Shown here: in pieces, positions 1-63,431 of the stretch
How the letters are laid out: every line of letters starts with the position of its first letter
How positions within the stretch are numbered: position 1 is the first letter of the stretch
Source of the DNA: a bacterium
GTDB lineage: Bacteria; Bacteroidota; Bacteroidia; Bacteroidales; FEN-979
DNA: 64,000 nt
Assembly: GCA_043806735.1 (NCBI GenBank)
Contig: JAZDGR010000023.1
Coordinates: forward strand, 6,977 to 70,976
Reading direction: 5' to 3'
The notes under the pieces: generated by a model
The model's input: the letters and a program-made list of their open reading frames with translations, nothing else
The model's database searches: none
Told to the model about the DNA's origin: nothing
Made by a program: the position numbers and the translations under genes

Positions 1-2808
1 GCATGCGCACCTTTTTTCCGATGAACTGGTTCATCTCCGTCGCCATGATCTCTCCCCTGAACGAAGTTTCGAGCAGGTCGAACCAGGTATGGGTGACGGG
101 CCAGCCGAGCAGCTCGATTTCGTCGTAAACCTCTTCAAGCTGGGATTGCCAGAGCGCCGGAAGCTCGAAGCGTTTGGTGGGGACAGAATTGACAATTGAC
201 AATTGACAATTGACAATTGGATTTGCGGACCTGTGATCGGTGACTGGTGACTGGTGACTGGCGACTGGTGACTGTGGACTGTGGACTGTGGACTGGCAAC
301 TGCCAACTGCCAACTGACTCTTCCCCAGCAGCATATGCGCCTCCCACAGCAGCGTAGCCTTGGGTTTGCCGGTGAAACGGAAGGCGCCGACGCGGATGAG
401 GATGACGAGCTGTTCGATGGTGATGGGAACACGGGCAACAAAATCCTCTAAATCCTGGAAATCGCCATTCGCAGCTCGCTCCTCGCTAATCGCTTTTCCG
501 AGGTGATACTCCAGGTTCGCGATGTGGATAAAGCCCACATAGATGTCCTTTTCTCCGCGCAGGCAGGTCTTGTAGTCGCCGTTGTTCACACAGGGGAGGT
601 GCATTTGTGCTCCCCAGTTTTTGGCTTCGTTCATGTAGACCCAGGATGGATAAAACCCACCGAAGTTGTTGATCACCCCTACCATAAACTCCAGCGGGAA
701 GTGGGCTTTCAGGTAGAGGCTCTGGTAGCTCTCCACCGCGTATGAGGCCGAGTGGGCTTTGGAGAAGGAGTACCCGGCAAAGGATTCGATCTGCCGCCAT
801 ACCTCTTTGGTGACCTCTTCGGGATAGCCGGATTCTTTACAGTTGCTGAAGAACTTGTCGATAATCCGCTGGAGTTCTTTCTTTGAACGGTATTTGCCGC
901 TCATGGCCCGCCGGATCACATCCGACTCGCTCAGGTCGAGGCCGGCAAAGTGGTGGCAAATCTTCAGCACATCCTCCTGGTAAATCATCACACCATAGGT
1001 CTCTTTCAACTGCGCCTCCATAATGGGATGCAGGTATTTAAACTTCCCGGGGTTATGAAAGCGGTAAATATACTCCTTCATCATACCTGAACGGGCTACT
1101 CCGGGCCTTATGATCGAGCTGGCTGCCACCAGGGTGCGGTAGTCGTCGCACCGGAGCTTTTTCAGCAATCCGCGCATAGCCGGACTCTCCACATAGAAAC
1201 AGCCGATGGTGCAGGCCGACTGGAGCAGCTTCTTCACCTCCGGATCCTGCTTGAACTGCTTCACGTTGTGCACATCCACGCTGATGTTGCGGCTTTTCTT
1301 AACGATCCCGACGGTCTCGAAAATATGTCCGATCCCGCGCTGACTGAGGATATCTAGTTTTTCAAATCCGATATCCTCGGCTACATACATGTCCCATTGA
1401 GTGGTGGGAAATCCTTTCGGAGGCAGGTCGAGTGCTGTGTAGCAGGTGATCGGCTTCTCCGAAATCAGTACCCCGCCGGCATGGATGCTCCGGATGTTAG
1501 GGAAGTCGACCATCATCTCCCCTATTTTACTGATTTTCTCAATGATACTGCTGCGGTTGATGGACTCTTCGGGGTGTTTCAGGAAGGCATCCATCTCTCC
1601 TTTCGGAAGTCCGTGTACTTTCCCGAGTTCCCGGTAAATCGAGTTTCCTCTGAAGGTCGACATGGCGCCGAGCAGGGCGGTATGTTCGTGTCCATACCGT
1701 TTAAATATGTAGTCCAGCACCTCGTCCCGCTCTTTCCACGAATAGTCAATGTCGAAGTCGGGGGGCGAAGTCCGCTTTGGGTTGATGAACCGTTCGAAGT
1801 AGAGGTCGAGTTCGATCGGATCGACGTTGGTGATCTTCAGGCAATAGGCTACGATGCTGTTGGCGCCGCTGCCCCGTCCCACGTGATAAAACCCACGCGC
1901 CATGGAGTACCGGATGATGTCCCAGGCGATAAGGAAATAGGCAGCAAATCCCATTTTGCAGATGATGTCGACCTCATGGCGGATCCGGTTCCGGGCTTCC
2001 ACATGCTCCCTACCGTACCGGTATTCCAGTCCGTCGAGCGCCAGTTTTTCCAGCAGAATCTGGTCGTCGTAGATACTTCCGGTGAAAGTTCGTTTGTTCT
2101 TGCATTCCCGGAAGTCGAAGTCAATGCTGCATGCATCCATCAACTTTTCCGTATTCCGGATGATCTCCGGGTACTCCCGGAAAGGGTCCAACAGTTCATC
2201 CAGTGGTTTCATCACCTCTTCGGAAGAAGCCAGGTGATGCGGTTCAAGTCGCGTGAGCAGTATGTTATGATCAATGGCCCGCAGGTTCCGGTGCAGCTCC
2301 CAGGTAGGTTCATCAGCGAGTGTAACCGGCGCCATGATGACCATACGCGGGATCAGGTGGCGATGGCGGGAGAGGATGATGGGATTCATGTCAGAGGGGC
2401 GGATGCCGACTACCTCACCCCCCAACCCCCTCTCCTTGAGGAGAGGGGGAGAAGGGGGTGAGGTGAATGGACGTACTACCACCACATTCTCAAACTCCGG
2501 CGGGCGGTCCGGCAACGGGATATTGCGCAGCGTATGGTGGCTTAGAAATTCGTTCAGTTCGCGGAAACCTTCGTTGTTTTTTGCCAACCCTACATAGAGT
2601 AGCCGGTCTTTCCGGCGAAATTCGATCCCGGCGATGGGCTTGACCCCCTTCTCCTTACAGGCTGCCACGAAGTCCATGATTCCAGTAGAGTTGTTGATGT
2701 CGGTCAAGGCCATGGCAGAAACACCGTATGTTGCAGCCTGCTCCGCCAACTTTTCAAGGGAGAGGGTGCCGTAGCGGAGGGAGTAATAAGAGTGGCAGTT
2801 GAGGTACA
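1..2808 (-). CDS. dnaE2: DnaE2-type (error-prone) DNA polymerase III alpha subunit, first ~936 codons; 3' end runs off the left window edge
   Basis: Own minus-strand translation; the frame is missing from the ORF track because it has no stop inside the window. TTG start at 2808: LYLNCHSYYSLRYGTLSLEKLAEQAATYGVSAMALTDINN (PHP domain), GRGSGANSIVAYCLKITNVDPIELDLYFERFINPKRTSPPDFDIDY, IGCFYVESPAMRGLL, IIRPGVARSGMM, FAGYSFSKAHSASYA. I checked the frame codon by codon and it is open from 371 down to position 2. Synteny with a Y-family polymerase and a LexA-like gene favours DnaE2 over the replicative DnaE. Confidence 0.85.
183..220. repeat. Heptamer array AATTGAC (about 5 units) inside the dnaE2 reading frame
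   Basis: gacagaa ttgacaa ttgacaa ttgacaa ttgacaa ttgg; gives four CAATTG palindromes at 7-nt spacing (193, 200, 207, 214). Confidence 0.9.
233..316. repeat. Twelve phase-locked heptamers NNNACTG (84 nt) inside the dnaE2 reading frame
   Basis: gtgatcg gtgactg x3 gcgactg gtgactg tggactg x3 gcaactg ccaactg x2. Read on the minus strand it encodes SQLAVGSCQSTVHSPQSPVASHQSPVTDH between conserved DnaE blocks. Confidence 0.95.
2412..2464. repeat. GC-rich nested palindrome (REP/MITE-like) embedded in frame in dnaE2
   Basis: Outer arms ACCTCACCCCC (2412-2422) / GGGGGTGAGGT (2454-2464). Inner arms CCCCCTCTCC (2426-2435) / GGAGAGGGGG (2440-2449), loop TTGA. Encodes TSPPSPPLLKERGLGGEV on the minus strand. 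Confidence 0.8.
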
Positions 2809-2840
2809 AATGACGTATTTTTAATCATTTTTCCGACAGT

Positions 2841-2859
2841 AATATAATCATTATCTTTG
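2841..2859 (+). promoter_or_regulatory. Promoter plus candidate operator, copy 1 of an identical 19-mer AATATAATCATTATCTTTG
   Basis: Exact 19/19 match to 4518-4536. Contains a TATCTTTG -7 box (2852-2859) and the imperfect palindrome AATATAAT-C-ATTATCTT. Lies 32 nt upstream of the ORF at 2891 and 33 nt from the divergent dnaE2 start. Confidence 0.5.
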
Positions 2860-2890
2860 TCTGCTGTTTAAAAGAAAAAAAAAATTAAAA

Positions 2891-3279: not shown

Positions 3280-4443
3280 TTACTGATCTCCATTTTTAAT
3301 AGCCACTCCCCTCCTCACAATCTTCTGCCCATACTTCCTGCGAATCCGGTCAAGCGCCTGGTAAAGATTGACCATCTCCACCTTGTCTTCGAATATGTTG
3401 AGCTGCGGACTTCCCGATATAAGCCCGCTGAAGCGCACGCCGATGAGGCGGATCAACATGCGGCGCTGGTAGAGGCGGTCGAAGAGTTCCTTCACCACCG
3501 GGATCAGCACATGGTCGAATGCGGTGTAGGGAATCTGTTTCTGCAACGTATGGGTATCGAAATTCGAGTAACGAATCTTTACGGTCACACAAGAGGTCAG
3601 TTTCTGCTTGTCGCGCAGCTCAAAGGAGATCTTCTCGACCATCTTCACCAGGATCTCTTTCATCCGCACGATGTCGATGCTGTCCTGATCAAAGGTAGTC
3701 TCGGTACTCACCGATTTGGCTTCATGGTAGGGATGGACAGCGGTACGGTCGATGCCGTTGGCTTTCTCCCAGATCACAATCCCGTTCTTTCCCAGTACCC
3801 GCTCCATCATCTCCACCGGCATCCGGCTCAGGGTATCGATGGTGACGATGCCCATCGAGCGCAGCAACCGGTATGTCTTCTCCCCGATCATCGGGATCTT
3901 GCGGATAGACAGGGGCGACAGAAACGGTTTCACCGTATCCTGCGGCACAAATAACTCCCCATTCGGTTTCGCCTCCCCCGTTGCAATCTTTGAAACGGTC
4001 TTATTGACCGACATGCCGAATGAAATAGGCAGTCCCGTGTTCTTCATGATCGCCTGCCTCAACTCCTGCGTCCATTTCAGCAACCCGAAGAAGCGGTCCA
4101 TACCGGTTACATCGAGGTAGTGTTCGTCGATCGACGCTTTTTCATACAGCGGCGCCCGCTCGGCGATGATATCCGTCACCGTGTGAGAATAGTTGGAATA
4201 GAGCTCCATGTCGCCCCGGATAAAAACAGCATCGCGGCACAGCATCCGGGCCATCTTCATCGGCATCCCTGCATGTACGCCAAACTTCCTCGACTCATAA
4301 CTGCAACTCGCCACCACCCCCCGGTCGGAAGTCCCTCCAATGATCACCGGCTTCCCCTCCAGTTCGGTATTCACCAGCCGCTCCACCGACACGAAGAAGG
4401 TGTCGAGATCGAGGTGGACGATATTGCGGTTCAACATCACCAT
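3280..4443 (-). CDS. dinB: Y-family DNA polymerase (DinB / Pol IV type) with intact catalytic motifs
   Basis: NIVHLDLDTFFVSVE (catalytic DxD), SIDEHYLDVTGMD (catalytic DE), GLPISFGMSVNKTVSKIATGEAKPNG, little-finger region; 387 aa. Confidence 0.9.
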   Translation of the reverse strand: MVMLNRNIVHLDLDTFFVSVERLVNTELEGKPVIIGGTSDRGVVASCSYESRKFGVHAGMPMKMARMLCRDAVFIRGDMELYSNYSHTVTDIIAERAPLYEKASIDEHYLDVTGMDRFFGLLKWTQELRQAIMKNTGLPISFGMSVNKTVSKIATGEAKPNGELFVPQDTVKPFLSPLSIRKIPMIGEKTYRLLRSMGIVTIDTLSRMPVEMMERVLGKNGIVIWEKANGIDRTAVHPYHEAKSVSTETTFDQDSIDIVRMKEILVKMVEKISFELRDKQKLTSCVTVKIRYSNFDTHTLQKQIPYTAFDHVLIPVVKELFDRLYQRRMLIRLIGVRFSGLISGSPQLNIFEDKVEMVNLYQALDRIRRKYGQKIVRRGVAIKNGDQ

Positions 4444-4468
4444 TTCACCATATTCACCATATCACCAT
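4437..4468. repeat. Four copies of TCACCAT (ATGGTGA on the minus strand) at 8-9 nt spacing
   Basis: Copies at 4437, 4445, 4454 and 4462. The dinB ATG (4443-4441) is part of the first copy. Confidence 0.85.
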
Positions 4469-4517
4469 TTAATTTTTATTATATCTTTGCCGTGTTTTTA
4501 ATCAAATTGTCGATTAC

Positions 4518-4536
4518 AATATAATCATTATCTTTG
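4518..4536 (+). promoter_or_regulatory. Promoter plus candidate operator, copy 2 of the identical 19-mer AATATAATCATTATCTTTG
   Basis: Exact match to 2841-2859. TATCTTTG -7 box at 4529-4536, 21 nt upstream of the LexA-like ATG (4557). Confidence 0.55.
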
Positions 4537-6824: not shown

Positions 6825-7766
6825 ATGATCAAGAAAAAAATCCTGGTCACCGGGGGAGCCGGCTTCCTCGGGTCCCATCTTTGTGAACGGTTGTTGAATG
6901 AAGGGAACGAGGTTGTTTGTCTGGACAACTATTTCACAGGGCAGAAACAAAACGTGGTTCACCTCCTCGACAACCCATTTTTCGAGTTGATACGCCACGA
7001 TGTGACGATGCCATTTTTTATTGAGGTAGACGAGATTTACAACCTGGCCTGTCCGGCCTCTCCTATTCACTACCAGTATAATCCCATCAAAACCGTAAAA
7101 ACATCGGTCATGGGAGCCATCAATATGCTCGGACTGGCCAAACGGATCAAAGCAAAGGTGTTGCAGGCTTCCACCAGCGAAGTCTATGGAGATCCAGAGA
7201 TCCACCCGCAAACCGAAAATTACTGGGGCCATGTCAACCCGATCGGTCCGAGGTCTTGCTATGATGAAGGAAAGCGAGTTGCCGAGACCCTCTTCATCAA
7301 TTACCACCAGCAGAATAAAGTCGGGATCAAAATAATCCGCATATTCAATACCTACGGCCCCAGAATGCATCCGAATGACGGACGCGTGGTTTCCAATTTT
7401 ATCGTTCAGGCGCTCAATGGGGAACCAATCACCATCTATGGCGACGGCTCTCAAACCCGGAGTTTTTGTTACGTGGATGACTTGCTGGATGGGATGATCC
7501 GCCTGATGAACTCCCGGGAAGATTTTATCGGTCCGGTCAACGTTGGGAATCCGGGTGAATTTACCATACTTGAACTGGCGGAACTTGTACTGAAGTTGAC
7601 CGGTTCCCGTTCAAAAGTGATCCATCTTCCATTACCCGCAGATGATCCGACACAACGTCAGCCCAATATTGATCTGGCCAGAAAAGAACTTGGATGGCAA
7701 CCGAGTATTCCTCTCGAAGAGGGATTGAAACGAACAATCGGATATTTCAAATCCATTGTTTCATAA
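6825..7766 (+). CDS. UDP-glucuronate decarboxylase (UDP-xylose synthase), SDR family
   Basis: [47 protein letters not shown] (YxxxK); 313 aa. Confidence 0.9.
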
Positions 7767-7776
7767 CCTGATCCCT

Positions 7777-10365
7777 ATGAAGATCCTGATTACAGGGGCC
7801 AAAGGCCAGATGGGAAACGAATTCCAGGTTCTGAGCAAACAGGACAACTCGAATCAATTACTTTTTACTGACATTGACGAGCTTGATATTACCAATGCCA
7901 AGGCCGTTTCGGCTTTCCTTACCGTTGAAAAGCCAGATGTCCTGATCAATTGTGCGGGATACACCGCTGTGGACAAAGCGGAGCAGGAGCCGGAGAAAGC
8001 GTTTCTGATCAACGGCACTGCCGTGGAGATCCTCGCCAAAGCCGTTTCCCTCTCCAATACACTGCTCATTCATATCTCCACCGACTATGTATTCAATGGC
8101 AATTCAAATATACCCTATAGGGAGGAGGATTCCCCGGGTCCAATTTCAGTTTACGCCAGAAGTAAATATGAAGGAGAACGGGCGGTTGAGAAATATGCCA
8201 AACGGGGAATCATTATCCGAACTTCCTGGCTTTATTCCGCTTTTGGCCAGAACTTTGTCAAGACGATCCTGAAATACGGAATTGAACGAGGAACCCTGAG
8301 GGTTGTTGTTGACCAGATCGGGAGTCCAACCTATGCAAGGGATCTGTGTAAAGCCATCCTGGATATCCTCCCGGTCTTGGGAAAGCATCAGGGTGTTCAG
8401 GTATTCCACTTTGCAAATGAAGGGCTTGCCTCCTGGTTTGATTTTGCTAAAGCAATCGTTGGTTTTGCGGGCATCCCGTGTGAAGTCTACCCGATAGAGA
8501 CCAGGGATTATCCCCTGCCGGCTACACGTCCCTTCTATAGTGTGCTGAACAAAGAGAAAATCAAAGCAACCTTCGGGCTAACCATCCCATACTGGCGGGA
8601 CAGCTTGCAGGATTGTATTCATATGTTCGAGAAAGTGGATCCTAAAGTAATCAGTAGGGCCCAAGCCTGGTTAGAGGGAACATTTGATGAAGAGACAAAG
8701 GCACGGGTCAACGATTTGCTGGAGGACGATCCTGCGGAACTGACCGATGCCTTTTACCGCGATCTGGAGTTTGGCACCGGGGGATTACGCGGCATCATGG
8801 GAGTCGGGACTAACCGCATGAATAAATACACGGTAGGGATGGCAACCCAGGGGTTGGCGAATTACCTTAAAAAAATGTTCCGGGAAGTTCCTCAGATCCG
8901 CATGGCCATTTCCTATGATAGCCGGAACAACAGCCAGTTTTTTGCGCAAATCACTGCAGAAGTTCTTGCCGGGAACGGATTTCTGGTTTACCTTTTCAGG
9001 GAACTTCGGCCCACTCCGGAACTTTCTTTTGCCATCCGTCACCTGGGATGCCAAAGTGGTGTGATGATCACTGCGTCACACAATCCCAAAGAATACAATG
9101 GCTATAAGGCTTACTGGGATGACGGAGCCCAGATGATCGCTCCCCACGACATCAATGTCATCCAGGAGGTTCAGAAGATTACCTCCATCGATCAAGTGAT
9201 CTGGCAGGGGAACAGCGGAAATATCCTGACTATCGGCGACGAAATGGATGAGGTATACTTGAATAAAATTCTTGAATTGCGGCTTTCTCCTGAAATCATG
9301 GAACGGCAAAAAAAGCTTAAAATCGTCTATACTCCCCTTCACGGAACCGGGCAGACGTTAGTTCCCGTAATTCTCAGCCGGTTTGGATTTACAAATGTAA
9401 CCGTTGTGCAAGAGCAAGCAGTTCCCGACGGAAATTTCCCGACCGTCCACTCCCCGAATCCCGAAGAACCTGATGCATTGGATCTTGCTATCAAACTGGC
9501 CACTCAAACCGATGCTGAACTGGTGATGGCCACCGATCCGGATGCTGACAGGGTTGGGATTGCCGTAAAAAACGACCAGGGTGAATTTATCCTCCTCAAC
9601 GGGAATCAGACAGCCTCGCTTCTGTTTTACTATATCCTTACCCGGTGGAAGGAACTCGGGAAGTTAACCGGGCGGGAATATATCGTTAAAACAATCGTCA
9701 CGACCGAGCTTCTGCGAGACATTGCAAGGTCGTTTAACGTGGAGTACTATGATGTTCTCACCGGTTTTAAATTCATTGCGGATATCATCAAAAAGAATGA
9801 ACAGGAAAAAACCTTTATCGTGGGCGGGGAGGAGAGTTACGGATACCTTGTGGGGGATTTCGTCCGGGACAAAGATGCAGTCAGTGCATGTGCCATGATC
9901 GCTGAAACTGCTGCCTGGGTCGCAGATCAGGGGAAATCACTCTTCGATTTATTGATGGAAATCTATACAGGTTTTGCTTACTACAAAGAAAGTCTGCTTT
10001 CGGTTACCAAAAAAGGAAAATCGGGAGCCGAGGAGATCCAGGAGCTGATGATCGGGTACCGCGAGCGACCTATGACTTCGATCAACGGCATCCGGGTCAC
10101 CGGGCTGAAAGATTACCTGACCCTGGAAGATAAAGACCTTATTCTTGGAACCTCAAAACCTATCCACCTCCCAAAGTCCAATGTTCTTCAGTTTATTCTG
10201 GAGGACGGTAGTGTGATCAGTGTCCGTCCTTCCGGCACGGAACCCAAGATCAAATACTATTTCGGAGTCAGGGAAAGCTTACAGGATCGGTCTTATTACA
10301 ACCAGGTAGACGAAATTCTCCAGGAAAAAATCAACGGTATCATCCGATCTTTGAATTTGCAATAA
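7777..10365 (+). CDS. Single ORF fusing dTDP-4-dehydrorhamnose reductase (RfbD-like, ~282 aa) head-to-tail to a phosphoglucomutase/phosphomannomutase-family mutase (~580 aa)
   Basis: N-terminal part: MKILITGAKGQMGNEF...STDYVFNG...YARSKYEGE...YWRDSLQDCI. It continues without a stop (checked 8581-8670) into HMFEKVDPKVISRAQAWLEGTFDEETKARV...LEFGTGGLRGIMG...TASHNPKEYNGYK. An internal in-frame ATG lies at 8623. Confidence 0.8.
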   Translation: MKILITGAKGQMGNEFQVLSKQDNSNQLLFTDIDELDITNAKAVSAFLTVEKPDVLINCAGYTAVDKAEQEPEKAFLINGTAVEILAKAVSLSNTLLIHISTDYVFNGNSNIPYREEDSPGPISVYARSKYEGERAVEKYAKRGIIIRTSWLYSAFGQNFVKTILKYGIERGTLRVVVDQIGSPTYARDLCKAILDILPVLGKHQGVQVFHFANEGLASWFDFAKAIVGFAGIPCEVYPIETRDYPLPATRPFYSVLNKEKIKATFGLTIPYWRDSLQDCIHMFEKVDPKVISRAQAWLEGTFDEETKARVNDLLEDDPAELTDAFYRDLEFGTGGLRGIMGVGTNRMNKYTVGMATQGLANYLKKMFREVPQIRMAISYDSRNNSQFFAQITAEVLAGNGFLVYLFRELRPTPELSFAIRHLGCQSGVMITASHNPKEYNGYKAYWDDGAQMIAPHDINVIQEVQKITSIDQVIWQGNSGNILTIGDEMDEVYLNKILELRLSPEIMERQKKLKIVYTPLHGTGQTLVPVILSRFGFTNVTVVQEQAVPDGNFPTVHSPNPEEPDALDLAIKLATQTDAELVMATDPDADRVGIAVKNDQGEFILLNGNQTASLLFYYILTRWKELGKLTGREYIVKTIVTTELLRDIARSFNVEYYDVLTGFKFIADIIKKNEQEKTFIVGGEESYGYLVGDFVRDKDAVSACAMIAETAAWVADQGKSLFDLLMEIYTGFAYYKESLLSVTKKGKSGAEEIQELMIGYRERPMTSINGIRVTGLKDYLTLEDKDLILGTSKPIHLPKSNVLQFILEDGSVISVRPSGTEPKIKYYFGVRESLQDRSYYNQVDEILQEKINGIIRSLNLQ

Positions 10366-14351: not shown

Positions 14352-14352
14352 A

Positions 14353-17282: not shown

Positions 17283-17420
17283 CAGTAGGATCGTGGTTTG
17301 CATTGCAAAAGTAAGAATTATTTCTAAACCGGTCAAAAATGCCTTTTTTGAGCGAGAAGGCTGTCAAATTATCCGTGATGTGCCTGAATTTGTTCAACGG
17401 CAAGGTTTTTGCCAACCGGC

Positions 17421-17466
17421 ACCAGGGTATCAGGTTACCAGGGTACCAGGTTACCAGGTTAACAGG
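17421..17466. repeat. Octamer array TTACCAGG (6 units)
   Basis: accagg gtatcagg ttaccagg gtaccagg ttaccagg ttaacagg. Contains the palindromes GGTTACC, GGTACC and GTTAAC. Lies in the divergent spacer before clpB. Confidence 0.9.
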
Positions 17467-17473
17467 TCATAAG

Positions 17474-17508
17474 TAATTTTAATTTTTAATTTTGAACTTT
17501 TAATTAAA
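17474..17508. repeat. AT-rich heptamer array AATTTTN (5 units) directly upstream of clpB
   Basis: taatttt aattttt aattttg aactttt aattaaa. Confidence 0.7.
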
Positions 17509-17512: not shown

Positions 17513-20104
17513 ATGAATTTCAACAACTTCACAATCAAGTCACAGGAAGCGGTTCAGAAAGCCAAGGAGATAGCCCAGGCTTTTCAGAATCAAGCTATTG
17601 AGACATCTCATTTGCTGAAAGGAATCCTGACAACGGATGAGCATGTCACTCCTTACCTGTTGAAAAAACTACATGTCAATATTCCCATTTTTACCAAAGC
17701 GCTCGACAAACTGATCGAATCTTACCCGAAAGTCTCTGGTGGAGAGGCTTACCTGAGCAGGGAGGCCAATCAGGCCTTGCAGAAAGCGTTGGCTTATTGT
17801 CAGGAGATGAAGGATGATTTCGTTTCGATTGAGCACCTCCTTCTGGGAATCCTGTCGGTAAACGATGCTACCTCCCGGATGTTAAAAGATAGCGGTATTA
17901 CGGAAAAAGACCTGATGGCTGCCATCAAGCAACTCCGTCAGGGCAGTAATGTAAAAAACCAGTCGGCCGAAGAGAATTACAACGCCCTGACGCGATATGC
18001 CAGGAATCTAAATGAAATGGCGCGGGATGGGAAACTCGATCCGGTGATCGGGAGAGATGAAGAGATCCGTCGTGTTTTACAGATCCTGAACCGGAGGACC
18101 AAGAATAATCCGATTCTTATAGGGGAGCCGGGTGTGGGGAAGACGGCTATTGCCGAAGGGTTGGCTCACCGGATCATCGACGGAGATGTTCCGGAGAACC
18201 TGAAAAGCAAGCAAATCTATTCCCTGGATATGGGAGCTCTGATGGCGGGAGCCAAATACAGGGGGGAGTTTGAAGAACGTCTGAAAAGCGTTGTGAAGGA
18301 GGTGATCAGCGCCAACGGGGAGATCATCCTCTTCATTGATGAGATTCATACCCTGGTTGGAGCCGGGGCGACCGAAGGAGCGATGGATGCAGCCAATATC
18401 CTGAAGCCGGCCCTTGCGCGGGGCGAGCTGCGGGCCGCTGGCGCAACCACCCTCAAGGAATATCAGAAGTATTTTGAAAAAGACAAGGCGCTTGAACGCC
18501 GTTTTCAGCCTGTCCTGGTCAACGAACCCGATACCCTGGATGCGATCAGCATCCTCCGGGGGCTCAAGGAACGGTATGAAACGCACCATCATGTCAGGAT
18601 CAAGGATGAAGCGATCATTGCTGCCGTAGAACTTTCCCAGCGGTATATTTCAGACAGGTTTCTCCCCGACAAGGCCATTGACCTGATCGATGAAGCTGCT
18701 TCGAAACTCCGGCTGGAAATCAATTCCCTGCCTGAAGATCTGGAGAAGATAGAGCGAAAGATCCGTCAGCTTGAGATTGAACGCGAAGCGATCAAGCGTG
18801 AAAATGACAAAGACAAACTGAAGGAGCTTAATGAAGAGATCGCCAACCTGAGCGACGAGCGGAATGAGATGAAGGCAAAGTGGCAGTCAGAGAAGGAACT
18901 GGTGGAGCAGATCCAGAACCAGAAAAAAGAAATTGAGTTTTTGAAACTGGAAGCTGAGCAAGCCGACCGGAACAGCGACCTGGGAAAGGTGGCAGAGATC
19001 CGTTACGGAAAGATTCCTGCCGCAGAGAAAGCGATCGAATCGACCAAACAGAAATTATCGGAGATCCAGAAGGACTCTCCGATGGTGAACGAGGAGGTAG
19101 GCGCTGAAGAGATTGCCGAGATCGTATCACGATGGACCGGCATTCCGGTTACCCGGATGCTTCAGAGTGAACGGGAGAAGCTTATGGATCTTGAAACCGA
19201 ACTCCACATGAGGGTTGTCGGACAGGATGAGGCCATCAGCGCCATTTCAGACGCCATCCGAAGAAGCCGGGCCGGTTTACAGGATGCCCGCCGCCCGATT
19301 GGGTCGTTTATTTTCCTGGGGACCACCGGGGTTGGCAAAACGGAGCTGGCCAAAGCGCTCGCTGAGTTTTTGTTTAACAACGAGAACAACATGGTGCGGA
19401 TCGATATGTCGGAATATCAGGAACGTCACACGGTCAGCCGGTTGATTGGCGCCCCTCCGGGATATGTAGGGTACGACGAAAGCGGTCAGCTGACCGAAGC
19501 CGTCAGAAGGAAACCCTACTCGGTGGTACTTCTGGATGAGATCGAAAAAGCCCATCCCGATGTCTTCAACATTCTGCTCCAGGTCCTTGACGACGGCCGT
19601 TTGACGGATAATAAAGGGAGGACGGTCGATTTCAAGAACACGATCATCATCATGACCTCCAACATCGGATCGCACATCATCCAGGAGAACCTCGAGAAAG
19701 TAAATAACACCAACCGGGAAGAGATCCTGAACAATACGCGCCGCCAGGTGTTTGACCTGCTGAAGAAAACCATCCGGCCGGAATTCCTGAACCGTATTGA
19801 TGAGATCATCATGTTCCAGCCCCTGACCCGGGAGGAGATCCAACAGGTTGTCAGACTGCAACTGAGCCTGGTGGCCAAAATGCTGGAAAAGAACGATATC
19901 AGGCTGACCGCAAAAGAAAAAGCGATCGATTTCATCGCCAACATCGGGTTTGATCCCCAGTACGGTGCACGGCCAATCAAACGGGTATTGCAGAAACAGG
20001 TTCTCAACGAACTCTCCAGGATGCTTTTGCAGGGGAAGGTCGATCGCGACTCGGAGATCATGGTAGACGTCAAAGATGGCAACCTCATCTTTAAAAACAA
20101 ATAA
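17513..20104 (+). CDS. clpB: ATP-dependent disaggregase ClpB
   Basis: Two AAA+ modules ([10 protein letters not shown]; [13 protein letters not shown]), a long coiled-coil middle domain, 863 aa. Confidence 0.95.
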
Positions 20105-43740: not shown

Positions 43741-43773
43741 GTGCTGATTGATAAGTAGATTATTTTGGATTCT

Positions 43774-45746: not shown

Positions 45747-46262
45747 ATGCATCCACGAATCGAAATTATTCAGGGAGATATTACTCAACTTCCGGTTGAC
45801 GCGATTGTCAATGCAGCCAACCGAAGTTTACTCGGCGGAGGGGGCGTCGACGGAGCCATTCACCGGGCTGCCGGGAAGCAGCTTCTTGACGCCTGCAAGC
45901 TACTGGGGGGATGTGAAACAGGGAAGGCAAAGATTACTCCCGGATTTAATCTTCCGGCCAGGTTTGTAATCCATACAGTTGGACCTGTATGGAACGGAGG
46001 AAACTATGGTGAAGCGGCGCAACTGGCAAACTGTTATCGCATTTGCCTGATGCTGGCCTCTGAAAATGAATGCCGGACCCTTGCCTTTCCGAACATCAGC
46101 ACCGGTGTATACAGATTTCCGAAGAGGTTGGCAGCGGAAATCGCAGATAAAGAAGTGAAAAAGTATCTTATGCATTACAAAATCCCGGAAAAAATTTTCT
46201 TTGTTTGCTTTGATGCAGAGAATTATGAAATATATCGGGAGCTGATTGATCGTGAATCGTGA
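45747..46262 (+). CDS. Macro-domain protein (O-acetyl-ADP-ribose deacetylase, YmdB-like)
   Basis: IEIIQGDITQLPVDAIVNAANRSLLGGGGVDGAIHRAAG, FPNISTGVYRFP. Confidence 0.85.
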   Translation: MHPRIEIIQGDITQLPVDAIVNAANRSLLGGGGVDGAIHRAAGKQLLDACKLLGGCETGKAKITPGFNLPARFVIHTVGPVWNGGNYGEAAQLANCYRICLMLASENECRTLAFPNISTGVYRFPKRLAAEIADKEVKKYLMHYKIPEKIFFVCFDAENYEIYRELIDRES

Positions 46263-46264
46263 GA
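46244..46264. repeat. Three heptamers (gattgat cgtgaat cgtgaga), reverse complement of the ATTCACG family
   Basis: Spans the macro-gene stop (46260-46262) and the GTG start of the next gene (46259). Confidence 0.75.
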
Positions 46265-48748: not shown

Positions 48749-50461
48749 ATGAAAAATTATACACTCCCACTTTTTTTAGCCATTTGTTTTGTGGTGTTCA
48801 GTCCGGTTCTCACCAGCGCCCAACATGATAATAATCAACCTAACCGAAAGGTAATTATGCATCAGGAGGTACCTGATGACCCTTACCTGCCATATAGTTC
48901 TGCAGAATCCAACACTTCTCCTGCACAATTCCATAAAAGCGCAATTTTTACCATGACCCAGGTAAATGTGAACGCAAACGGAGAAAATATTATCGGAGAT
49001 GCGGCAAACGAACCTTCTATTGCCCTGGATCCCACAAACCCCGACAAGATGGTCATCGGCTGGCGTCAATTTGACAATGTGAACAGTAATTTCAGGCAGG
49101 CCGGTTACGGATATACGTCCGACGGCGGACAAACATGGACTTTTCCCGGTGTCATCGAGCCCGGTATTTTCCGTTCCGACCCCGTGCTGGATTATGATTC
49201 GGAGGGAATCTTTTATTATAACAGTCTGACCTCTCAAAGCTCGGTTTACTCATGTAATGTGTTTAGAAGCACTGATGGGGGCGCAGGATGGGATGCAGGG
49301 ATTTATGCGCACGGTGGGGATAAGCAATGGATGACCCTCGACCGGAGCGGCGGAGTGGGTGCAGGTAACATTTACTCATTCTGGACAATGTATTACAGTT
49401 CCTGCCTCCCCGGGGCATTTACCCGGTCAACAAACGGAGGTAACAGCTATGAACCCTGCGTGATGGTAGACGGGAATCCTTACTGGGGAACTATGACAGT
49501 AAACAATGACGGGGAATTATATATTGCAGGTGCTGGAGAATGGGGAGGAATTGTAGTGGCAAAATCCTCTTCTGCCCAGGTTCCGGGGGGCACAGTTGAC
49601 TGGGATTTTTCCACCGAAGTCGATATGGATGGCTCCCTCGGAGGATGGTCGCCGGTGAATCCGGAAGGATTGCTTGGCCAGGCCAATGTGGATGTGGACC
49701 GTTCGACGGGGGCGGGACAGGGGAATGTATATGTACTCGCCACTGTAGAGCGATATTCGAACGGAGATCCGGCTGATGTCATGTTTGCCGGGAGTACGGA
49801 TGGCGGGCTCACCTGGAGTTCCCCTGTCAGGATCAACGACGATCCGGGTACGAACGACTACCAGTGGTTCGGCACTATGTCTGTGGCTCCGAACGGCCGG
49901 ATTGATGTGGTCTGGCTCGATACCCGTGAAGCTCCTTCAGGCACTTACCTTTCTGCTTTGTACTACTCTTATTCCGATGACCAGGGGGAAACCTGGTCGG
50001 TCAATGAAAAACTATCCGACTTGTTCGACCCACATTCAGGCTGGCCACAGCAACAGAAAATGGGGGATTATTTCGATATGGAATCGGATGAAACGGGAGC
50101 ACGTCTCGCCTGGGCCAACACATTAAACGGGGAACAGGATGTTTATTACAGTTATATTATACCCCAATATACCGGCATCGACAACGACCCGAATTATCAG
50201 GACTTGCTGTCACTTGCCTGTTTCCCTAATCCCTGCCATGGTCAAACAACCATCAGGTATATCATTCCAGTGTCCAGTTTCGTCAAGCTTGATATCTGTA
50301 GCATCTATGGCAAAGAGGTCCGGCCCCTCGTCAATGAAGTCCAGCAACCGGGCTTGTATTCCGTGGATTATTCCACCGGTACACTTCCGGCAGGTTACTA
50401 CTATTGCCGGTTAACTGCCGGATCAAACGTAATAACCACCGGGCTTGTGGTGATAAAGTAA
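48749..50461 (+). CDS. Secreted BNR/Asp-box repeat (sialidase-fold-like) protein with T9SS type A C-terminal sorting domain
   Basis: Asp-boxes TSDGGQTW, STDGGAGW, STNGGNSY, STDGGLTW, SDDQGETW. C-terminal domain CFPNPCHGQTTIRY...GYYYCRLTAGSNVITTGLVVIK. Confidence 0.75.
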   Translation: MKNYTLPLFLAICFVVFSPVLTSAQHDNNQPNRKVIMHQEVPDDPYLPYSSAESNTSPAQFHKSAIFTMTQVNVNANGENIIGDAANEPSIALDPTNPDKMVIGWRQFDNVNSNFRQAGYGYTSDGGQTWTFPGVIEPGIFRSDPVLDYDSEGIFYYNSLTSQSSVYSCNVFRSTDGGAGWDAGIYAHGGDKQWMTLDRSGGVGAGNIYSFWTMYYSSCLPGAFTRSTNGGNSYEPCVMVDGNPYWGTMTVNNDGELYIAGAGEWGGIVVAKSSSAQVPGGTVDWDFSTEVDMDGSLGGWSPVNPEGLLGQANVDVDRSTGAGQGNVYVLATVERYSNGDPADVMFAGSTDGGLTWSSPVRINDDPGTNDYQWFGTMSVAPNGRIDVVWLDTREAPSGTYLSALYYSYSDDQGETWSVNEKLSDLFDPHSGWPQQQKMGDYFDMESDETGARLAWANTLNGEQDVYYSYIIPQYTGIDNDPNYQDLLSLACFPNPCHGQTTIRYIIPVSSFVKLDICSIYGKEVRPLVNEVQQPGLYSVDYSTGTLPAGYYYCRLTAGSNVITTGLVVIK

Positions 50462-50520
50462 ATTGCGCATGAATTGTCATGTATTGCCATTTATTGCCAT
50501 ATATTGCCATGAATTGCCAT
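50461..50520. repeat. Decamer array NNATTGCCAT (6 units) starting in the stop codon of the BNR gene
   Basis: aattgcgcat gaattgtcat gtattgccat ttattgccat atattgccat gaattgccat. Confidence 0.9.
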
Positions 50521-50531
50521 CAATCTTTAAA

Positions 50532-50587
50532 CGTCCCTCGTCCTACGTCTCACGTCCTTCGTCCCTCGTCCTACGTCTCAGGTCTCA
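50532..50587. repeat. Heptamer array CGTCNNN (8 units) overlapping the 3' end of the ABC-F gene
   Basis: cgtccct cgtccta cgtctca cgtcctt cgtccct cgtccta cgtctca ggtctca. On the minus strand it encodes the last residues VRPET plus the stop of the ABC-F protein. Confidence 0.9.
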
Positions 50588-52439
50588 CGCTTAGCTCTAA
50601 CCATCGGTCTCCCTTAGTATCCAATTCCTGCAAAACTGCTGCAAAGCGGTTGGATCTTTCCTGTAATTCCTCCGGAGTGAGTGCGCCGGAATGAAGTGCT
50701 GCTTCTATGGTCGCCTTTTCGGCTTCCAACTCCCCGATTTCCCGCTCCAGGGTTTCCAGTTCCTGCTTCTCTTTGAACGTCATTTTTTTCGGATCTACGG
50801 GTTTGTTTAACGGTTTCGCAGGCGCGGATGGCTTTTCAGCTGCTTTTACCTGTCGCTTCCGACGTTCGCTATAATCCCGGTACTGGGTATAGTTCCCCGG
50901 AAAATCTTTGACCACCCCATTTCCTTCAAAGACAAACAGATGATCCACGATCTTGTCGAGGAAATACCGGTCGTGTGTGACCACGAGTACGCATCCGTTG
51001 AACGATTCGAGGTACTCCTCAAGGACGTTGAGTGTGAGGATGTCGAGGTCGTTGGTAGGTTCATCGAGAATGAGGAAGTTCGGACTATGCATCAGTACCG
51101 TGACGAGATAGAGGCGCCGCTTCTCCCCGCCGCTGAGTTTGTATACCGGCTGATGATGAACCGGATAGGGAAACAGAAAGTAGTTCAGGAATGCTGCGGC
51201 TGAGATGGTATCGCCGTTACCCAGTTTTACCACATCGGCGATCTCCCGTACTACATCGATCACCTTGGTATCGGGATTGAAAGAGATCCCTTTCTGGTTG
51301 TAATAGCCAAACCGAATGGTCTCCCCTTTTTTTACAGATCCCCTTGCCGGCCGGAGTTTTCCGGTGATGATGTCGAGAAAAGTCGATTTGCCGGTTCCGT
51401 TATTCCCGATGATGCCGATTTTCTCATTCCGTTTGAAGGTGAAAGTAAATCCCTTCAGGATGGGCAAGTCGTCCCAGGAAAAAGATACATCGTTGACTTC
51501 GAGGATCTTTTTTCCCATCCTGCTACCCTCAATATGGATCTTCATCCGTTCATCCGGTGTTTTCCTTCCGGCGGTCTCCTTCAGCCCGTAAAAACTATCG
51601 ATCCGGGCTTTTGCTTTGGTGGTGCGGGCTTTGGGCATCCTGCGCATCCACTCCTGTTCCTTTCGCAGCAGGTTCTTGGCTTTTTCGGTCTCCTTAGTCA
51701 GGATATCTAATCTTTCAGGCTGCTTTTCGAGGAAGTAAGAGTAACCTCCCCGGTAGCGATGGATGCCGGTGTGGTCCAACTCTAAAATTTCGTTGCACAC
51801 CCGGTCGAGAAAATACCGGTCGTGTGTGACCATGATAAAGGTGATCTTCCGATTTGAAAGGTGTTCCTCGAGCCATTCAATCATTTCGACATCCAGGTGG
51901 TTGGTGGGTTCATCGAGGATCATGAAGTCGGGTTCCGTAATAAGCACCTTGGCCAGTGAGATCCGCTTTTTCTGCCCGCCCGAGAGTTCTCCAATCTGTT
52001 TCTCCAGTTCCGGGATCTGAAGCCGGGAAAGGATCTGTTTGATTCGGGTTTCATATTCCCAGCCGTTGAGGGCATCCATCCGTTCGATGGCCTGGTGGAT
52101 TTCGGTTTTATCCTCCCCGCGAACTGCCTGCTCGTACCGGTAAATCGCAGACAGCACTTCGTTGGAGGTGATATAGACTTCATTGAAGACCGTATGGGAG
52201 GGGGTCAGGTCGGGTTCCTGTTTCAGGTATCCAAGCGAGGCCTTGTTGAAAAGTGTCACACTTCCGGCATCGGTGGGTTCAAGTCCGGCTATGATGTTCA
52301 GCAGACTGGTTTTTCCGGCGCCATTACGGGCGATCAGAGCTACTTTCTGAAACTGGCTGATCACAAAGGAGATATCCTCGAAGAGCACGTTGTCTCCGTA
52401 ACTACGGGAAAGGTGTTCGACGGTGAGAATGGTGGACAT
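50571..52439 (-). CDS. ABC-F family ATPase (Uup/YheS-like, no transmembrane domain)
   Basis: Two ABC cassettes (ARNGAGKTSL ... LSGGQKKRISLA ... ILDEPTNHLD; GNNGTGKSTF ... LSGGEKRRLYL ... ILDEPTNDLD), C-terminal coiled coil. Start set to the ATG at 52439. Confidence 0.9.
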   Translation of the reverse strand: MSTILTVEHLSRSYGDNVLFEDISFVISQFQKVALIARNGAGKTSLLNIIAGLEPTDAGSVTLFNKASLGYLKQEPDLTPSHTVFNEVYITSNEVLSAIYRYEQAVRGEDKTEIHQAIERMDALNGWEYETRIKQILSRLQIPELEKQIGELSGGQKKRISLAKVLITEPDFMILDEPTNHLDVEMIEWLEEHLSNRKITFIMVTHDRYFLDRVCNEILELDHTGIHRYRGGYSYFLEKQPERLDILTKETEKAKNLLRKEQEWMRRMPKARTTKAKARIDSFYGLKETAGRKTPDERMKIHIEGSRMGKKILEVNDVSFSWDDLPILKGFTFTFKRNEKIGIIGNNGTGKSTFLDIITGKLRPARGSVKKGETIRFGYYNQKGISFNPDTKVIDVVREIADVVKLGNGDTISAAAFLNYFLFPYPVHHQPVYKLSGGEKRRLYLVTVLMHSPNFLILDEPTNDLDILTLNVLEEYLESFNGCVLVVTHDRYFLDKIVDHLFVFEGNGVVKDFPGNYTQYRDYSERRKRQVKAAEKPSAPAKPLNKPVDPKKMTFKEKQELETLEREIGELEAEKATIEAALHSGALTPEELQERSNRFAAVLQELDTKGDRWLELSVRPET

Positions 52440-54384: not shown

Positions 54385-54385
54385 G

Positions 54386-54458
54386 AGCGGAAAACGGGAG
54401 TCGAACCCGCGACCCTCAGCTTGGGAAGCTGATGCTCTACCAACTGAGCTACTTCCGC
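54386..54458 (-). tRNA. tRNA-Gly, anticodon CCC; no encoded CCA
   Basis: Minus strand GCGGAAGTAGCTCAGTTGGTAGAGCATCAGCTTCCCAAGCTGAGGGTCGCGGGTTCGACTCCCGTTTTCCGCT. The cloverleaf folds by hand: 7-bp acceptor with one G-U pair, D arm GCTC/GAGC, anticodon loop TTCCCAA, T arm GCGGG/CCCGT. Confidence 0.9.
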
Positions 54459-57997: not shown

Positions 57998-58233
57998 CAA
58001 GACCTGCCAACATTTTACTGGTCGAGGATGAACGCATTGATATGGAACTTGCACTGGCCGCATTTCGCCCGGTAAGACTTGGCAACACCATCCGGATTGC
58101 GACCACTGGAGAAGAAGCCCTGGATTATATTTTTGGTAAGGGGAAATATGTAGACCGAAAAGAATTTCTACTCCCCGACCTCATCCTGCTTGATCTGAAT
58201 ATACCCGGAATCAATGGATTTGATTTAACGTGA
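57994..58233 (+). pseudogene. 3'-truncated response-regulator receiver domain (79 codons)
   Basis: ILLVEDERIDMELALAAF...LILLDLNIPGINGFDLT then stop. It lacks the conserved Thr/Ser and Lys of beta4/beta5. The stop is the first unit of the heptamer array at 58231. Confidence 0.55.
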
Positions 58234-58258
58234 GACGTAAGACGTAAGATGTAAGAGG
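58231..58258. repeat. Heptamer array TAAGACG (4 units) filling the spacer up to the dgkA ATG
   Basis: tgagacg taagacg taagatg taagagg, then atg at 58259. It is the reverse complement of the CGTCTCA units at 50546-50587. Confidence 0.9.
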
Positions 58259-58663: not shown

Positions 58664-58678
58664 TTTCGCTATTTCGCT
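58664..58678. repeat. Two units of TTTCGCT, same family as 30213-30247
   Basis: tttcgct atttcgct, just upstream of the ATG at 58686. Confidence 0.5.
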
Positions 58679-58685
58679 ACTTGTT

Positions 58686-62693: not shown

Positions 62694-62775
62694 GGTGTAA
62701 AAATAGTAAAAACCTTTTTTCCTGAAATCTTGTCTCATACAAAGATTTGATTATTTTTGGGAAAAAGATATTCTT

Positions 62776-63402
62776 ATGTTCAGAGGACTTTTACCGCGCG
62801 AATATGCTTTTTACGATTATTTCGAGAAGCTTATGAGCATCAACATTGCCATCAGTGATGAATTTCTGGCGTTCGTGAAAGAAAAAAAGCATCCGGAAGT
62901 GGCCACAAAAGCGATCAAACGACTGGAACGGGAAGCGGATAGGCTAACCCACGAATGTACCGATTTGCTGCACCGGACCTTCATTACCCCGATTGATCGG
63001 GACCAGATCCACGAGCTGATCATCGGGTTGGATAATTTTGCTGATCAGATGAACGCCGCCACGTTTCGGATGTTCTATTACGGCATTGAAGAAATCCGGC
63101 ACGAAACGCTGGACTTTGCAAAGATCATCAGCCAATGTAATTCGGAACTGGAAAGCGCTGTCATCGGACTCAGGAACATCAAAAAAAACAGCAAATCCAT
63201 CCGGGGGAAATGCAGTCACATTCACGAACTGGAAAACCAGGCCGACGACATTTCCAGAGTGGCAGTCACTGAATTGTTCAAGACAAACGACATTTTGATG
63301 ATCATCAAATGGAAAGAGGTTTTTGAACGGCTGGAAAAAGCGGTAGACCGCATGGAACGTGTCGCCAATACCATTGAAAGTATCCTCATCGACAACGCTT
63401 AA
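62776..63402 (+). CDS. DUF47 (PhoU-like, TIGR00153-type) phosphate-transport regulator
   Basis: MFRGLLPREYAFYDYFEKL, EREADRLTHE, ITPIDRDQIHELI..LD..AD. Lies upstream of a PiT transporter. Confidence 0.8.
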   Translation: MFRGLLPREYAFYDYFEKLMSINIAISDEFLAFVKEKKHPEVATKAIKRLEREADRLTHECTDLLHRTFITPIDRDQIHELIIGLDNFADQMNAATFRMFYYGIEEIRHETLDFAKIISQCNSELESAVIGLRNIKKNSKSIRGKCSHIHELENQADDISRVAVTELFKTNDILMIIKWKEVFERLEKAVDRMERVANTIESILIDNA

Positions 63403-63431
63403 TACCCTGGTACCCTCCAACCCGCAAACCC
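63403..63431. repeat. Short 7-8 nt array (taccctgg taccctcc aacccgc aaaccc) filling the DUF47/PiT spacer
   Basis: TACCCTGG is the reverse complement of CCAGGGTA, which is present in the 17421 array. Confidence 0.55.

Follow-up and report, generated by a model that had tools for sequence, protein, structure and literature searches.

We analyzed a 64,000-nt stretch of a bacterial metagenome-assembled genome (MAG) contig (GenBank assembly GCA_043806735.1, contig JAZDGR010000023.1, forward-strand positions 6,977 to 70,976; hereafter the window) and found that its intergenic gaps, together with a few protein linkers, contain real tandem repeats of 7- and 8-nt units. We consider it probable, at roughly 0.7, that these arrays are lineage-specific heptamer and octamer microsatellites, of the type known as short tandemly repeated repetitive (STRR) sequences or long simple sequence repeats (LSSRs), driven by slippage and filtered by selection. 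A preliminary description of this DNA had offered two explanations. One, that the arrays are left behind by a slippage or repair process acting at sites that selection tolerates, is favored by the turnover of arrays between orthologous spacers, by indels of whole units between strains, and by the location of arrays within open reading frames (ORFs) outside Pfam domains. The other, a boundary or insulator role, was not borne out: neither sequence nor position is conserved, no terminator-like signal was found, and several relatives that share the gene order lack arrays.

Array census and placement

Tandem Repeats Finder (TRF) was run on the window, and repeats with a period of 6 to 10 nt and at least three copies were counted after merging. 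This yielded 16 arrays (662 nt in total; Table 1), whereas 100 dinucleotide-preserving shuffles of the window contained 0.36 on average and never more than 3. About 20 arrays had originally been listed; 16 are solid and four (43774-43794, 46244-46264, 58664-58678, and 63403-63431) are marginal, the last, claimed as a degenerate array, being undetected by TRF and unconfirmed. Periods of 7 nt, and also of 8 and 10 nt, occurred at 3 to 12 copies. Nearly all of the arrays reported by TRF showed 0% indels, and the term phase-locked, used earlier for units that stay in register, is therefore accurate except for 4437-4470, whose units measure 8, 9, and 8 nt. Higher-order periods of 14, 16, 24, and 28 nt were also present, indicating that blocks of several units had been duplicated.

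On a gene map of greedily chosen longest ORFs, which leaves 3,491 non-ORF bases in the window, arrays covered 16% of the non-ORF bases versus 0.46% of the ORF bases, an enrichment of about 35-fold. A TRF-level array was present in 9 of the 31 spacers of at least 25 nt, versus 0.02 in shuffled spacers; the statement that almost every nontrivial spacer carries one was thus too strong. All four plain convergent spacers of the window carried arrays, and a fifth convergent spacer contains a tRNA-Gly. Across 11 array-bearing loci, for which gene calls were crude, arrays occupied 13 of the 27 spacers between convergent genes, as against 7 of 35 between divergent and 12 of 66 between tandem genes, corresponding to a preference for convergent spacers over the other types (13/27 versus 19/101; odds ratio, 4.0; P = 0.005). 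This enrichment fits tolerance, since promoters and translation start regions are missing from convergent spacers, and it may also be compatible with a role of the arrays at 3' ends. Within the window, arrays were found ahead of start codons, behind stop codons, and also inside ORFs.

Distribution and turnover among relatives

The arrays are a lineage trait that is patchy within Bacteroidota. Bacteroidota sequence, which comprised the window and fetched loci (designated L) and amounted to 537 kb, contained 23 arrays of period 7 and 13 of period 8, plus multiples (14, 16, 21, and 24 nt). No array of period 7 or 8 was found in 979 kb of non-Bacteroidota loci, mostly archaeal, with closely related clpB genes. 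The gene order of the clpB region is conserved in about a dozen related MAGs. Array-rich loci, with about 2 to 3 arrays per 10 kb, comprised the window, L003, L007, L035, L081, L082, L084, and L085; seven loci with the same gene order (L002, L004, L005, L025, L033, L034, and L058) were array-free in the period count.

Arrays turn over between species. When orthologous spacers were compared, as had been suggested, relatives showed different units or no array. In the spacer 5' of clpB, the window has ACCAGGTT plus TAATTTT and L003 has 9.6 copies of ACTGGGTT, and the units are AAAGTCAC in L007, TATCTTG/CATCCAG in L028, and AAACGTC in L035. Two-copy proto-arrays were seen in L001 and L005, and no array was found in this spacer in L002, L004, L018, L025, L033, L034, and L058. 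The arrays always lay between a conserved TGGCA-N6-TTG motif and the ATG, and hence within what is presumably the leader. Turnover was likewise seen in the spacer 3' of clpB. At the recR 3' end, a GGTG-rich array is common to the window (56 nt) and L002 (26 nt), one of the two closest relatives of the window by ClpB identity, and is absent from L025 and L005. Conservation of identical arrays among distant relatives had been named as an argument against slippage-driven turnover. Here the outcome was mixed: a unit family is kept across species at the dnaE2 linker and the recR 3' end, but copy number and variants differ.

Whole-unit length change between strains

Strains that are nearly identical differ in array length by whole units. 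Exact matching of ClpB, Rpe, and DagK gave no strain-level twin of the window, and polymorphism was therefore followed in relatives. Loci L084 and L085, which come from two samples, are about 99.7% identical over 9.2 kb; what separates them is 14 small blocks of substitutions and two indels, both of the latter in arrays. One of the indels comprises 42 nt, equal to six ATCCCGC units (16.4 versus 22.4 copies). The other, of 54 nt, lies in an intergenic AAATGGTG array (2 versus >8 copies), which is unlikely to be an assembly artifact because it is shorter than typical short reads. Among DnaE2 proteins at least 99% identical to each other, compared within clusters of 90% identity, we found indels of 7, 14, 16, 7, and 13 amino acids (aa) at three permissive sites, each of them a whole number of repeat peptides. 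The arrays of L082 and L083, at 99.97% identity, are the same, so that the rate of unit change is high but not extreme.

In several relatives (proteins designated P), dnaE2 is split or cut short precisely where an array lies, and tails are out of frame (P0293, P0296, P0300 plus P0309, P0261 plus P0327, P0265 plus P0328, and P0311). These alleles reflect either natural frameshifts, by gain or loss of units in numbers other than multiples of three, or misassembly of long arrays.

Arrays inside genes

The ORF-embedded arrays of the window lie outside Pfam domains, in linkers or tails of DnaE2, MtaB, and Lgt. The dnaE2-like ORF, which is intact, reads positions 183 to 316 in frame (...QLAVGSCQSTVHSPQSPVASHQSPVT...) right after its HHH_6 domain (aa 733 to 819). 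In the 60 orthologues compared first, the length of this linker varies from 35 to 108 aa, and repeat peptides abound in it. In a set of 117 linkers, the periodicity was 7 aa in 13, 14 aa in 5, 8 aa in 2, and 13 aa in 2, and in none of the 117 was it 5, 6, 9, or 10 aa. Three heptamers encode seven amino acids, and the 8-aa period fits three octamers. Many of the linkers open with Q[SL]AVGS, which CAGTNGG units encode, and the DNA of L081 and L082 confirmed that heptamer arrays occupy this linker.

In lgt, three TTCACGA units lie directly 3' of the conserved GFWYF motif near the C terminus of the protein. With no stop codon left, the lgt frame continues into the gene for a SuhB-like inositol monophosphatase that follows, and the two form one 646-aa ORF (43798-45738). 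Lgt stands alone, with about 360 to 400 aa, in 119 of the 119 relatives listed, and the Lgt-SuhB ORF could be a real fusion or a sequencing error.

Another part of the dnaE2 gene also contains repeats. An imperfect 23-nt inverted repeat (CCTCACCCCCCAACCCCCTCTCC / GGAGAGGGGGAGAAGGGGGTGAGG) is located at 2413-2468 in the minus-strand gene, in frame and near the end of the PHP match (aa 3 to 95). At about the same protein position, the relatives L081, L084, and the P0033 cluster have heptamer or octamer arrays. In L084 (2379-3427), one octamer family appears three times in about 1 kb around the dnaE2 start, as AAATGGTG upstream on one strand, as 10.9 copies of ACCATTTC directly before the ATG, and as 11.4 copies of TCACCATC inside dnaE2. 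The same family is found at 4437-4470 of the window, next to the imuB-like gene.

Recurring unit families

Unit families recur at distant loci and in both orientations within the 64 kb, as the preliminary description had claimed. Positions 290-316 and 20106-20132 (ACTGCCA) match at 25 of 27 nt, including the preceding GGACTG variant; 25585-25615 and 42771-42801 (CTTCCCT/AGGGAAG) match at 30 of 31 nt as reverse complements; and 21495-21529 and 43694-43728 (GGTGA type) match at 28 of 35 nt, with the flank CGTATG common to both. In addition, TTCACGA at 44923 matches its reverse complement at 46249, and GGTGA-type units occur at 4437, 21504, and 43697. Two further pairings in the original list, CGTCTCA with TGAGACG and CCAGGGTA with TACCCTGG, have only single units behind each.

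Structure and signal scans

The minimum free energy (MFE) of nearly all arrays, calculated with ViennaRNA on both strands where relevant, did not go beyond that of shuffles (z mostly ≥0), in agreement with the earlier remark that most have no hairpin potential. The exception was 183-316, where pairing is possible between the CAGTTGG and the CAATTGT array (z = -3.3 relative to dinucleotide shuffles and -0.9 relative to mononucleotide shuffles). Scans for terminator-like and promoter-like sites in the window gave counts at the level of shuffles, and no site overlapped an array. A search of the window against Rfam returned only tRNA-Gly and no match to an array. This tRNA-Gly (CCC), at 54385-54458 on the minus strand, fills the one sizeable convergent spacer that is free of arrays.

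Several element types were considered and rejected. Intrinsic terminators and palindromes of the repetitive extragenic palindromic type do not fit, given the lack of a stable-hairpin excess, of overlap with terminator-like sites, and of Rfam matches. Clustered regularly interspaced short palindromic repeats have 23- to 50-nt repeats and unique spacers, whereas the arrays consist of 7- to 10-nt head-to-tail units without spacers, as had been stated. Recognition by a protein through a conserved 4-nt core with variable positions around it was not supported by a permutation test on 22 arrays (Fisher P = 0.52). As insulators with stops in three frames, the arrays would be poor candidates, since stop codons were found by eye in about 5 of 14 intergenic arrays, which is near chance. 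Inspection revealed no consistent G/C strand bias and no rut-like C-rich strand downstream of genes. A mobile element was rejected because the flanks share no motif or target-site duplication and no larger repeat contains the arrays. Finally, the window and all fetched loci lacked doubled copies of the canonical STRR units CCCCAGT, TTGGTCA, and CAACAGT, as well as arrays of TAACTGA or of G-quadruplex heptamers.

Probable slippage and alternative explanations

In the explanation that we favor, a short sequence would first be duplicated in tandem. Slipped-strand mispairing by one or more units, in the course of replication or repair, would then let the array expand, contract, and partly homogenize. 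Selection would purge arrays wherever an insertion of n × 7 or n × 8 nt does harm. Arrays would accumulate in convergent spacers, in 5' leaders between promoter and start, and in the first bases after stop codons, and also in C-terminal tails and interdomain linkers, where only multiples of three units keep the protein intact. A dedicated function would be unnecessary. Slippage is what we infer as the mechanism; the whole-unit indels themselves were observed.

A number of points weigh against this explanation. Slippage alone explains neither the preference for 7 to 8 nt nor why relatives with the same gene order are either rich in arrays or free of them, and this all-or-none difference between lineages points to a genome-wide (trans) factor. 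Purely local slippage also does not explain the recurrence of unit families at distant loci and across genomes, from which it follows that some nonlocal copying or sequence preference must exist. With a complexity filter, doubled units were shared between arrays in 19 pairs, compared with 2.6 expected; a test at the level of consensus units was weak (21 pairs versus 12.6 expected), because AT-rich low-complexity units inflate the null. AACTGCC is present in the window (twice), L035, and L081, AGCATCC is common to L007, L028, and L082, and some array pairs share the order of unit variants. The most overrepresented unit tetramer was ACTG/CAGT, found in 10 of 48 arrays versus 3.2 expected (P = 0.0005 uncorrected, about 0.07 and thus borderline after correction). 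In L082 and L083, which are 99.97% identical, six arrays were unchanged, which speaks against extreme instability. Where arrays exceed about 100 nt, assembly artifacts may account for part of the copy-number differences. Judged from sequence alone, the arrays may also have a function.

It is conceivable, although we think it unlikely, that a lineage-specific and possibly horizontally shared process seeds arrays from a limited, partly conserved, CAGT-biased vocabulary, copying fragments to permissive sites (e.g., as break-repair patches). If true, this would explain the recurring units and variant orders, the all-or-none relatives, and the 7-nt period shared by Cyanobacteria, Beggiatoaceae, and Bacteroidota, and as a side effect the error-prone polymerase gene dnaE2 would become a switchable locus. 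We also doubt the related proposal that a dedicated trans-acting process, such as templated insertion in break repair or a CAGT-core enzyme, maybe shared with Cyanobacteria and Beggiatoaceae by horizontal gene transfer, seeds or disperses the arrays, with slippage only modulating their length. This proposal would accommodate the recurrence of unit families on both strands and across genomes, the variant order shared by 290-316 with 20106-20132 and by 25585-25615 with 42771-42801, the contrast between array-rich and array-free relatives of the same gene order, and the clusters in which different arrays sit side by side. A CAGT core is reportedly also part of the units of STRR1 (CCCCAGT) and STRR3 (CAACAGT) described by Mazel in 1990, which can be set beside the ACTG/CAGT enrichment seen here, and it occurs in TAACTGA as well (PMC4679880). 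However, no candidate enzyme was apparent among the window genes, whose functions are ordinary ones in housekeeping and repair; arrays of the canonical STRR, TAACTGA, and G-quadruplex heptamers are absent; the conserved-core test was nonsignificant; and the tetramer enrichment is borderline after correction for multiple tests. The multiunit higher-order repeats, moreover, oppose templated synthesis unit by unit.

We are equally doubtful of the arrays as functional cis elements, that is, as unstructured spacers or leaders, as platforms for single-strand-binding proteins (of oligonucleotide-binding [OB]-fold, cold shock protein [CSP], or S1-like type) that tune translation, or as 3'-end boundaries. 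Bacteroidota leaders are not known to rely on Shine-Dalgarno pairing, and unstructured arrays would suit such leaders. Several arrays end 1 to 7 nt before start codons (clpB, lgt, dagK, and the gene at 58686), the arrays are unstructured as RNA, and the convergent spacers are enriched for them, both in the window (4 of 4) and across loci. A similar proposal has been made for the TAACTGA repeats upstream of starts in Beggiatoaceae (MacGregor 2015, PMC4679880). On the other hand, units are completely different from one array to another and from one orthologous spacer to the next, many relatives have these genes but no array, only 9 of 31 spacers bear an array, no terminator-like signal was detected, the same kinds of array occur inside coding linkers, and units containing stops are near chance.

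We are still more skeptical that the arrays are contingency (phase-variation) loci, in which unit gain or loss would shift the dnaE2 frame and thereby switch the error-prone polymerase, and arrays in promoters or leaders would tune expression. The split or truncated dnaE2 alleles fit this idea, since the members of three pairs lie on one contig each (P0300/P0309, P0261/P0327, and P0265/P0328) and the out-of-frame tails of P0293, P0296, and P0311 begin in the array; in-frame length variants of dnaE2 coexist, and there is a precedent in the TTTTGAT heptads that control expression of ctxAB (bioRxiv 10.1101/2021.05.14.444153). Yet the window dnaE2 is intact, the frameshifted forms may be assembly errors in arrays of 115 to 157 nt or decaying pseudogenes, and most arrays flank housekeeping genes (clpB, recR, aroE, and rpe) with no obvious need for switching. 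Phase variation would in any case be a consequence of slippage and would leave the ubiquity of the arrays unexplained. Assembly or sequencing artifacts, to which tandem repeats on a metagenome-type contig are prone, are very improbable, since the window arrays are at most 84 nt, below typical short-read length, arrays of the same kinds were seen in dozens of independent assemblies that stem from different projects and were built with different assemblers, the arrays of L082 (JGI) and L083 (ENA) are identical, and ORF-embedded arrays keep the reading frame.

Relation to known repeats

The STRR heptamers of heterocystous cyanobacteria, which Mazel et al. are said to have reported in 1990, have CCCCAGT, TTGGTCA, and CAACAGT as their canonical units. 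The comparison with STRRs made in the preliminary description is apt: in both cases heptamers are arranged head to tail, mostly between genes, and have no established function, and unit families are found at several loci in both orientations, dispersal being also a defining feature of STRRs. The differences are that the host here belongs to Bacteroidota (Marinilabiliales-like) and is not a heterocystous cyanobacterium, that the canonical units are absent, and that octamers and decamers are mixed in, arrays are short (3 to 12 copies), and some lie in frame in protein linkers.

As summarized in two later papers (PMC4679880, PMC4692102), Mrazek et al. (2007) described long simple sequence repeats (SSRs) with units of 5 to 11 nt, heptamers being commonest, and proposed polymerase slippage as their cause; the top ten genomes for 5- to 11-nt repeats given in these summaries belong to Burkholderia, Cyanobacteria, Actinobacteria, and Xanthomonas, with no Bacteroidota among them. 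As far as this class is characterized there, the window fits it, with dominance of heptamers, intergenic excess, patchy phylogeny, and slippage as the proposed cause, and departs from it in that octamers are nearly as common as heptamers. The arrays studied here are longer than composition predicts, are predominantly of period 7, are enriched in noncoding DNA, and change in copy number.

Arrays of TAACTGA and other heptamers have been described in Beggiatoaceae, Cyanobacteria, and five Bacteroidetes, namely, Flexibacter, Paludibacter, Gramella, Aequorivita, and Elizabethkingia (MacGregor 2015, PMC4679880), and a 2025 survey found a high density of short tandem repeats in Bacteroidota (PMC12699852). 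With heptamer-dominated long SSRs already on record, including in these five Bacteroidetes, the taxonomic surprise originally expressed was overstated, although the assignment of the host to Bacteroidota was correct. The TAACTGA arrays resemble those of the window in lying directly 5' of starts and occasionally in frame in ORFs, and in that related species lack arrays in the same spacer. In contrast, a single unit dominates genome-wide there, whereas here units are many and unrelated, no TAACTGA doublet exists, and the position relative to start codons is inconsistent. Rehm et al. (2015, PMC4692102) observed that, in related Xanthomonas species, heptamer arrays occupy the spacer of the same gene pair but are not constant in length or sequence. 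The GGGAATC and GGGGA(T/C)T repeats of Xanthomonas and Nostoc are thus similar to the arrays here as intergenic heptamers between the same gene pairs, variable in length and sequence, but they form G-quadruplexes and constitute one consensus family, whereas the arrays here are mostly without G runs (PMC4692102). SSR contingency loci share the change of copy number by slippage and the frame shift upon changes that are not multiples of 3 nt, and dnaE2 alleles split at arrays occur in relatives. Their units, however, usually measure 1 to 5 nt and lie in surface or restriction-modification genes of pathogens, whereas here the arrays mostly lie between housekeeping genes of an environmental bacterium.

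The repeat class is therefore already known; what is new is the uncultured Marinilabiliales-like host lineage, its own vocabulary of units, and the near-equal share of octamers. STRR-type heptamer arrays have been known for more than 30 years without an accepted origin or function, and this clade is useful for comparison, since it offers genomes of the same gene order that are array-rich or array-free and many environmental strains. A comparison of such sisters could reveal the genome-wide factor that underlies the preference for 7 to 8 nt, such as a difference in a polymerase, in flap processing, or in mismatch repair. In dnaE2, with its three permissive sites, the history of arrays is recorded in protein sequence. 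The arrays create hypervariable protein linkers and can fuse genes (Lgt-SuhB here) or split them (dnaE2 in relatives), and they are a likely source of annotation and assembly errors in MAGs.

Array coordinates and genomic context

Table 1. Tandem arrays of the window, with the intervals reported by TRF
Position (nt)	Unit and copies	TRF interval	Location and remarks	Basis
183-220	AATTGAC x4.7, perfect	187-219	In frame in dnaE2-like ORF (minus strand), linker after HHH_6	TRF, translation, Pfam
233-316	NNNACTG x12 (GTGACTG > TGGACTG > CCAACTG)	239-316	dnaE2 linker, in frame; 7-aa repeats of SHQSPVT / QLAVGS type	TRF
4437-4470	TCACCAT(T/A) x4, units of 8 to 9 nt	4437-4470	Divergent spacer between imuB-like and LexA-like genes; units read ATGGTGA on the minus strand and overlap the imuB-like start codon	TRF
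17421-17467	ACCAGG(G/T)T octamer x5.9, 16-nt higher-order period	17421-17467	clpB 5' leader, 3' of conserved TGGCA-N6-TTGC-like motif	
17474-17508	TAATTTT x4-5, AT-rich	17477-17505	Ends 5 nt before clpB ATG	TRF
20106-20146	ACTGCCA x3.1, perfect, plus degenerate units	20108-20129	Whole 42-nt convergent spacer of clpB and MORN gene	TRF
21504-21559	Degenerate GGTG-rich octamers, 70% match, low-scoring	21516-21553	Contains recR stop codon	TRF
25497-25571	GTCAG(G/A)A(A/G) octamers x9, 24-nt higher-order repeat	25497-25571	From aroE stop codon, convergent spacer	TRF
25585-25631	CTTCCCT x6.7	25585-25631	Reverse complement of array at 42771 (30/31)	TRF
30213-30247	TTTCGC(A/T) x5	30215-30246	Starts in rpe stop codon; family also present as ATTTCGCT in L007 and AGCGAAA in L081	TRF
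42771-42812	AGAGGGA / AGAAGGA x6	42771-42809	In frame in MtaB, linker between UPF0004 (aa 5-99) and Radical_SAM (aa 141-310)	TRF, Pfam
43697-43740	GGTGA(T/G)NT octamers x5	43697-43736	Contains mtaB stop codon	TRF
43769-43794	TAATTCN x3.4, weak, low-scoring	43769-43792	Ends 4 nt before lgt ATG; unit GTAATTC also occurs downstream of dnaE2 in L081	TRF
44922-44942	TTCACGA x2.9, perfect	44923-44942	In place of usual Lgt C-terminal tail, stop codon, and spacer	TRF
46244-46264	CGTGAAT CGTGAGA, 2 copies, marginal		Junction of macro-domain gene stop and next gene start; unit is reverse complement of that at 44922	Unreported by TRF
50461-50520	ATTGCCATNN decamer x5.8	50462-50520	From stop codon of BNR/type IX secretion system (T9SS) gene, convergent spacer	TRF
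50531-50589	CGTC(C/T)(C/T)N heptamers x8	50531-50589	Overlaps 3' end of ABC-F gene (minus strand); block of at least 21 nt duplicated, giving 28-nt higher-order repeat	TRF
58228-58258	T(A/G)AGA(C/T/G)G x4	58228-58256	Ends 1 nt before dagK ATG	TRF
58664-58679	TTTCGCTA octamer x2, marginal (shuffle level)		Family of array at 30213 and of L007 octamer array	

The Pfam matches of the window include type IX secretion sorting domains, which fit Bacteroidota, and its ClpB is 90 to 91% identical to ClpB of uncultured Prolixibacteraceae MAGs. On these markers, the organism is a Marinilabiliales/Prolixibacteraceae-like MAG. The Pfam annotation otherwise covers ordinary housekeeping genes (ClpB, RecR, RecA, Nth, LigA, RpoD, PNPase, S15, Rpe, AroE, MtaB, Lgt, and MiaA). 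At its left end, the window contains three genes that form a cassette: one LexA-like, one for a Y-family polymerase, and the dnaE2-like gene, relatives of which have been named "error-prone DNA polymerase" by JGI. A 49-nt direct repeat (80% identity) lies upstream of orf115 (2811-2859) and upstream of the LexA-like gene (4488-4536); its end, TAtcTTTG, is similar to the -7 element of Bacteroidetes promoters. The repeat is probably a promoter/operator shared by this SOS-like cassette of LexA-like, Y-family polymerase, and dnaE2 genes.

The 869-aa ORF at 7756-10365 joins RmlD (aa 8 to 290) to a phosphomannomutase/phosphoglucomutase (aa 338 to 843), and no array is visible at the junction. On the minus strand, a 94-aa ORF (25693-25977) matches only the C-terminal end of aldehyde dehydrogenase (profile positions 410 to 461) and probably represents what remains of a gene; at this place, the sequence of L002 is longer by about 1 kb.

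The motif 5' of clpB, TGGCA-N6-TTG(A/C), has a spacing like that of sigma-54 -24/-12 elements and is conserved in Bacteroidales relatives (window, about 17400-17420; also L004, L005, L025, L033, L035, L058, L062, L070, L072, L073, and L075). The window ClpB (17513-20104) is 75 to 82% identical in amino acids to many ClpBs of Methanoregula, Methanospirillum, Methanocella, and Bathyarchaeia (loci L008 to L080), and the archaeal carriers include complete chromosomes (L009, L032, and L046). This similarity suggests interdomain transfer of clpB between Bacteroidales and archaea.

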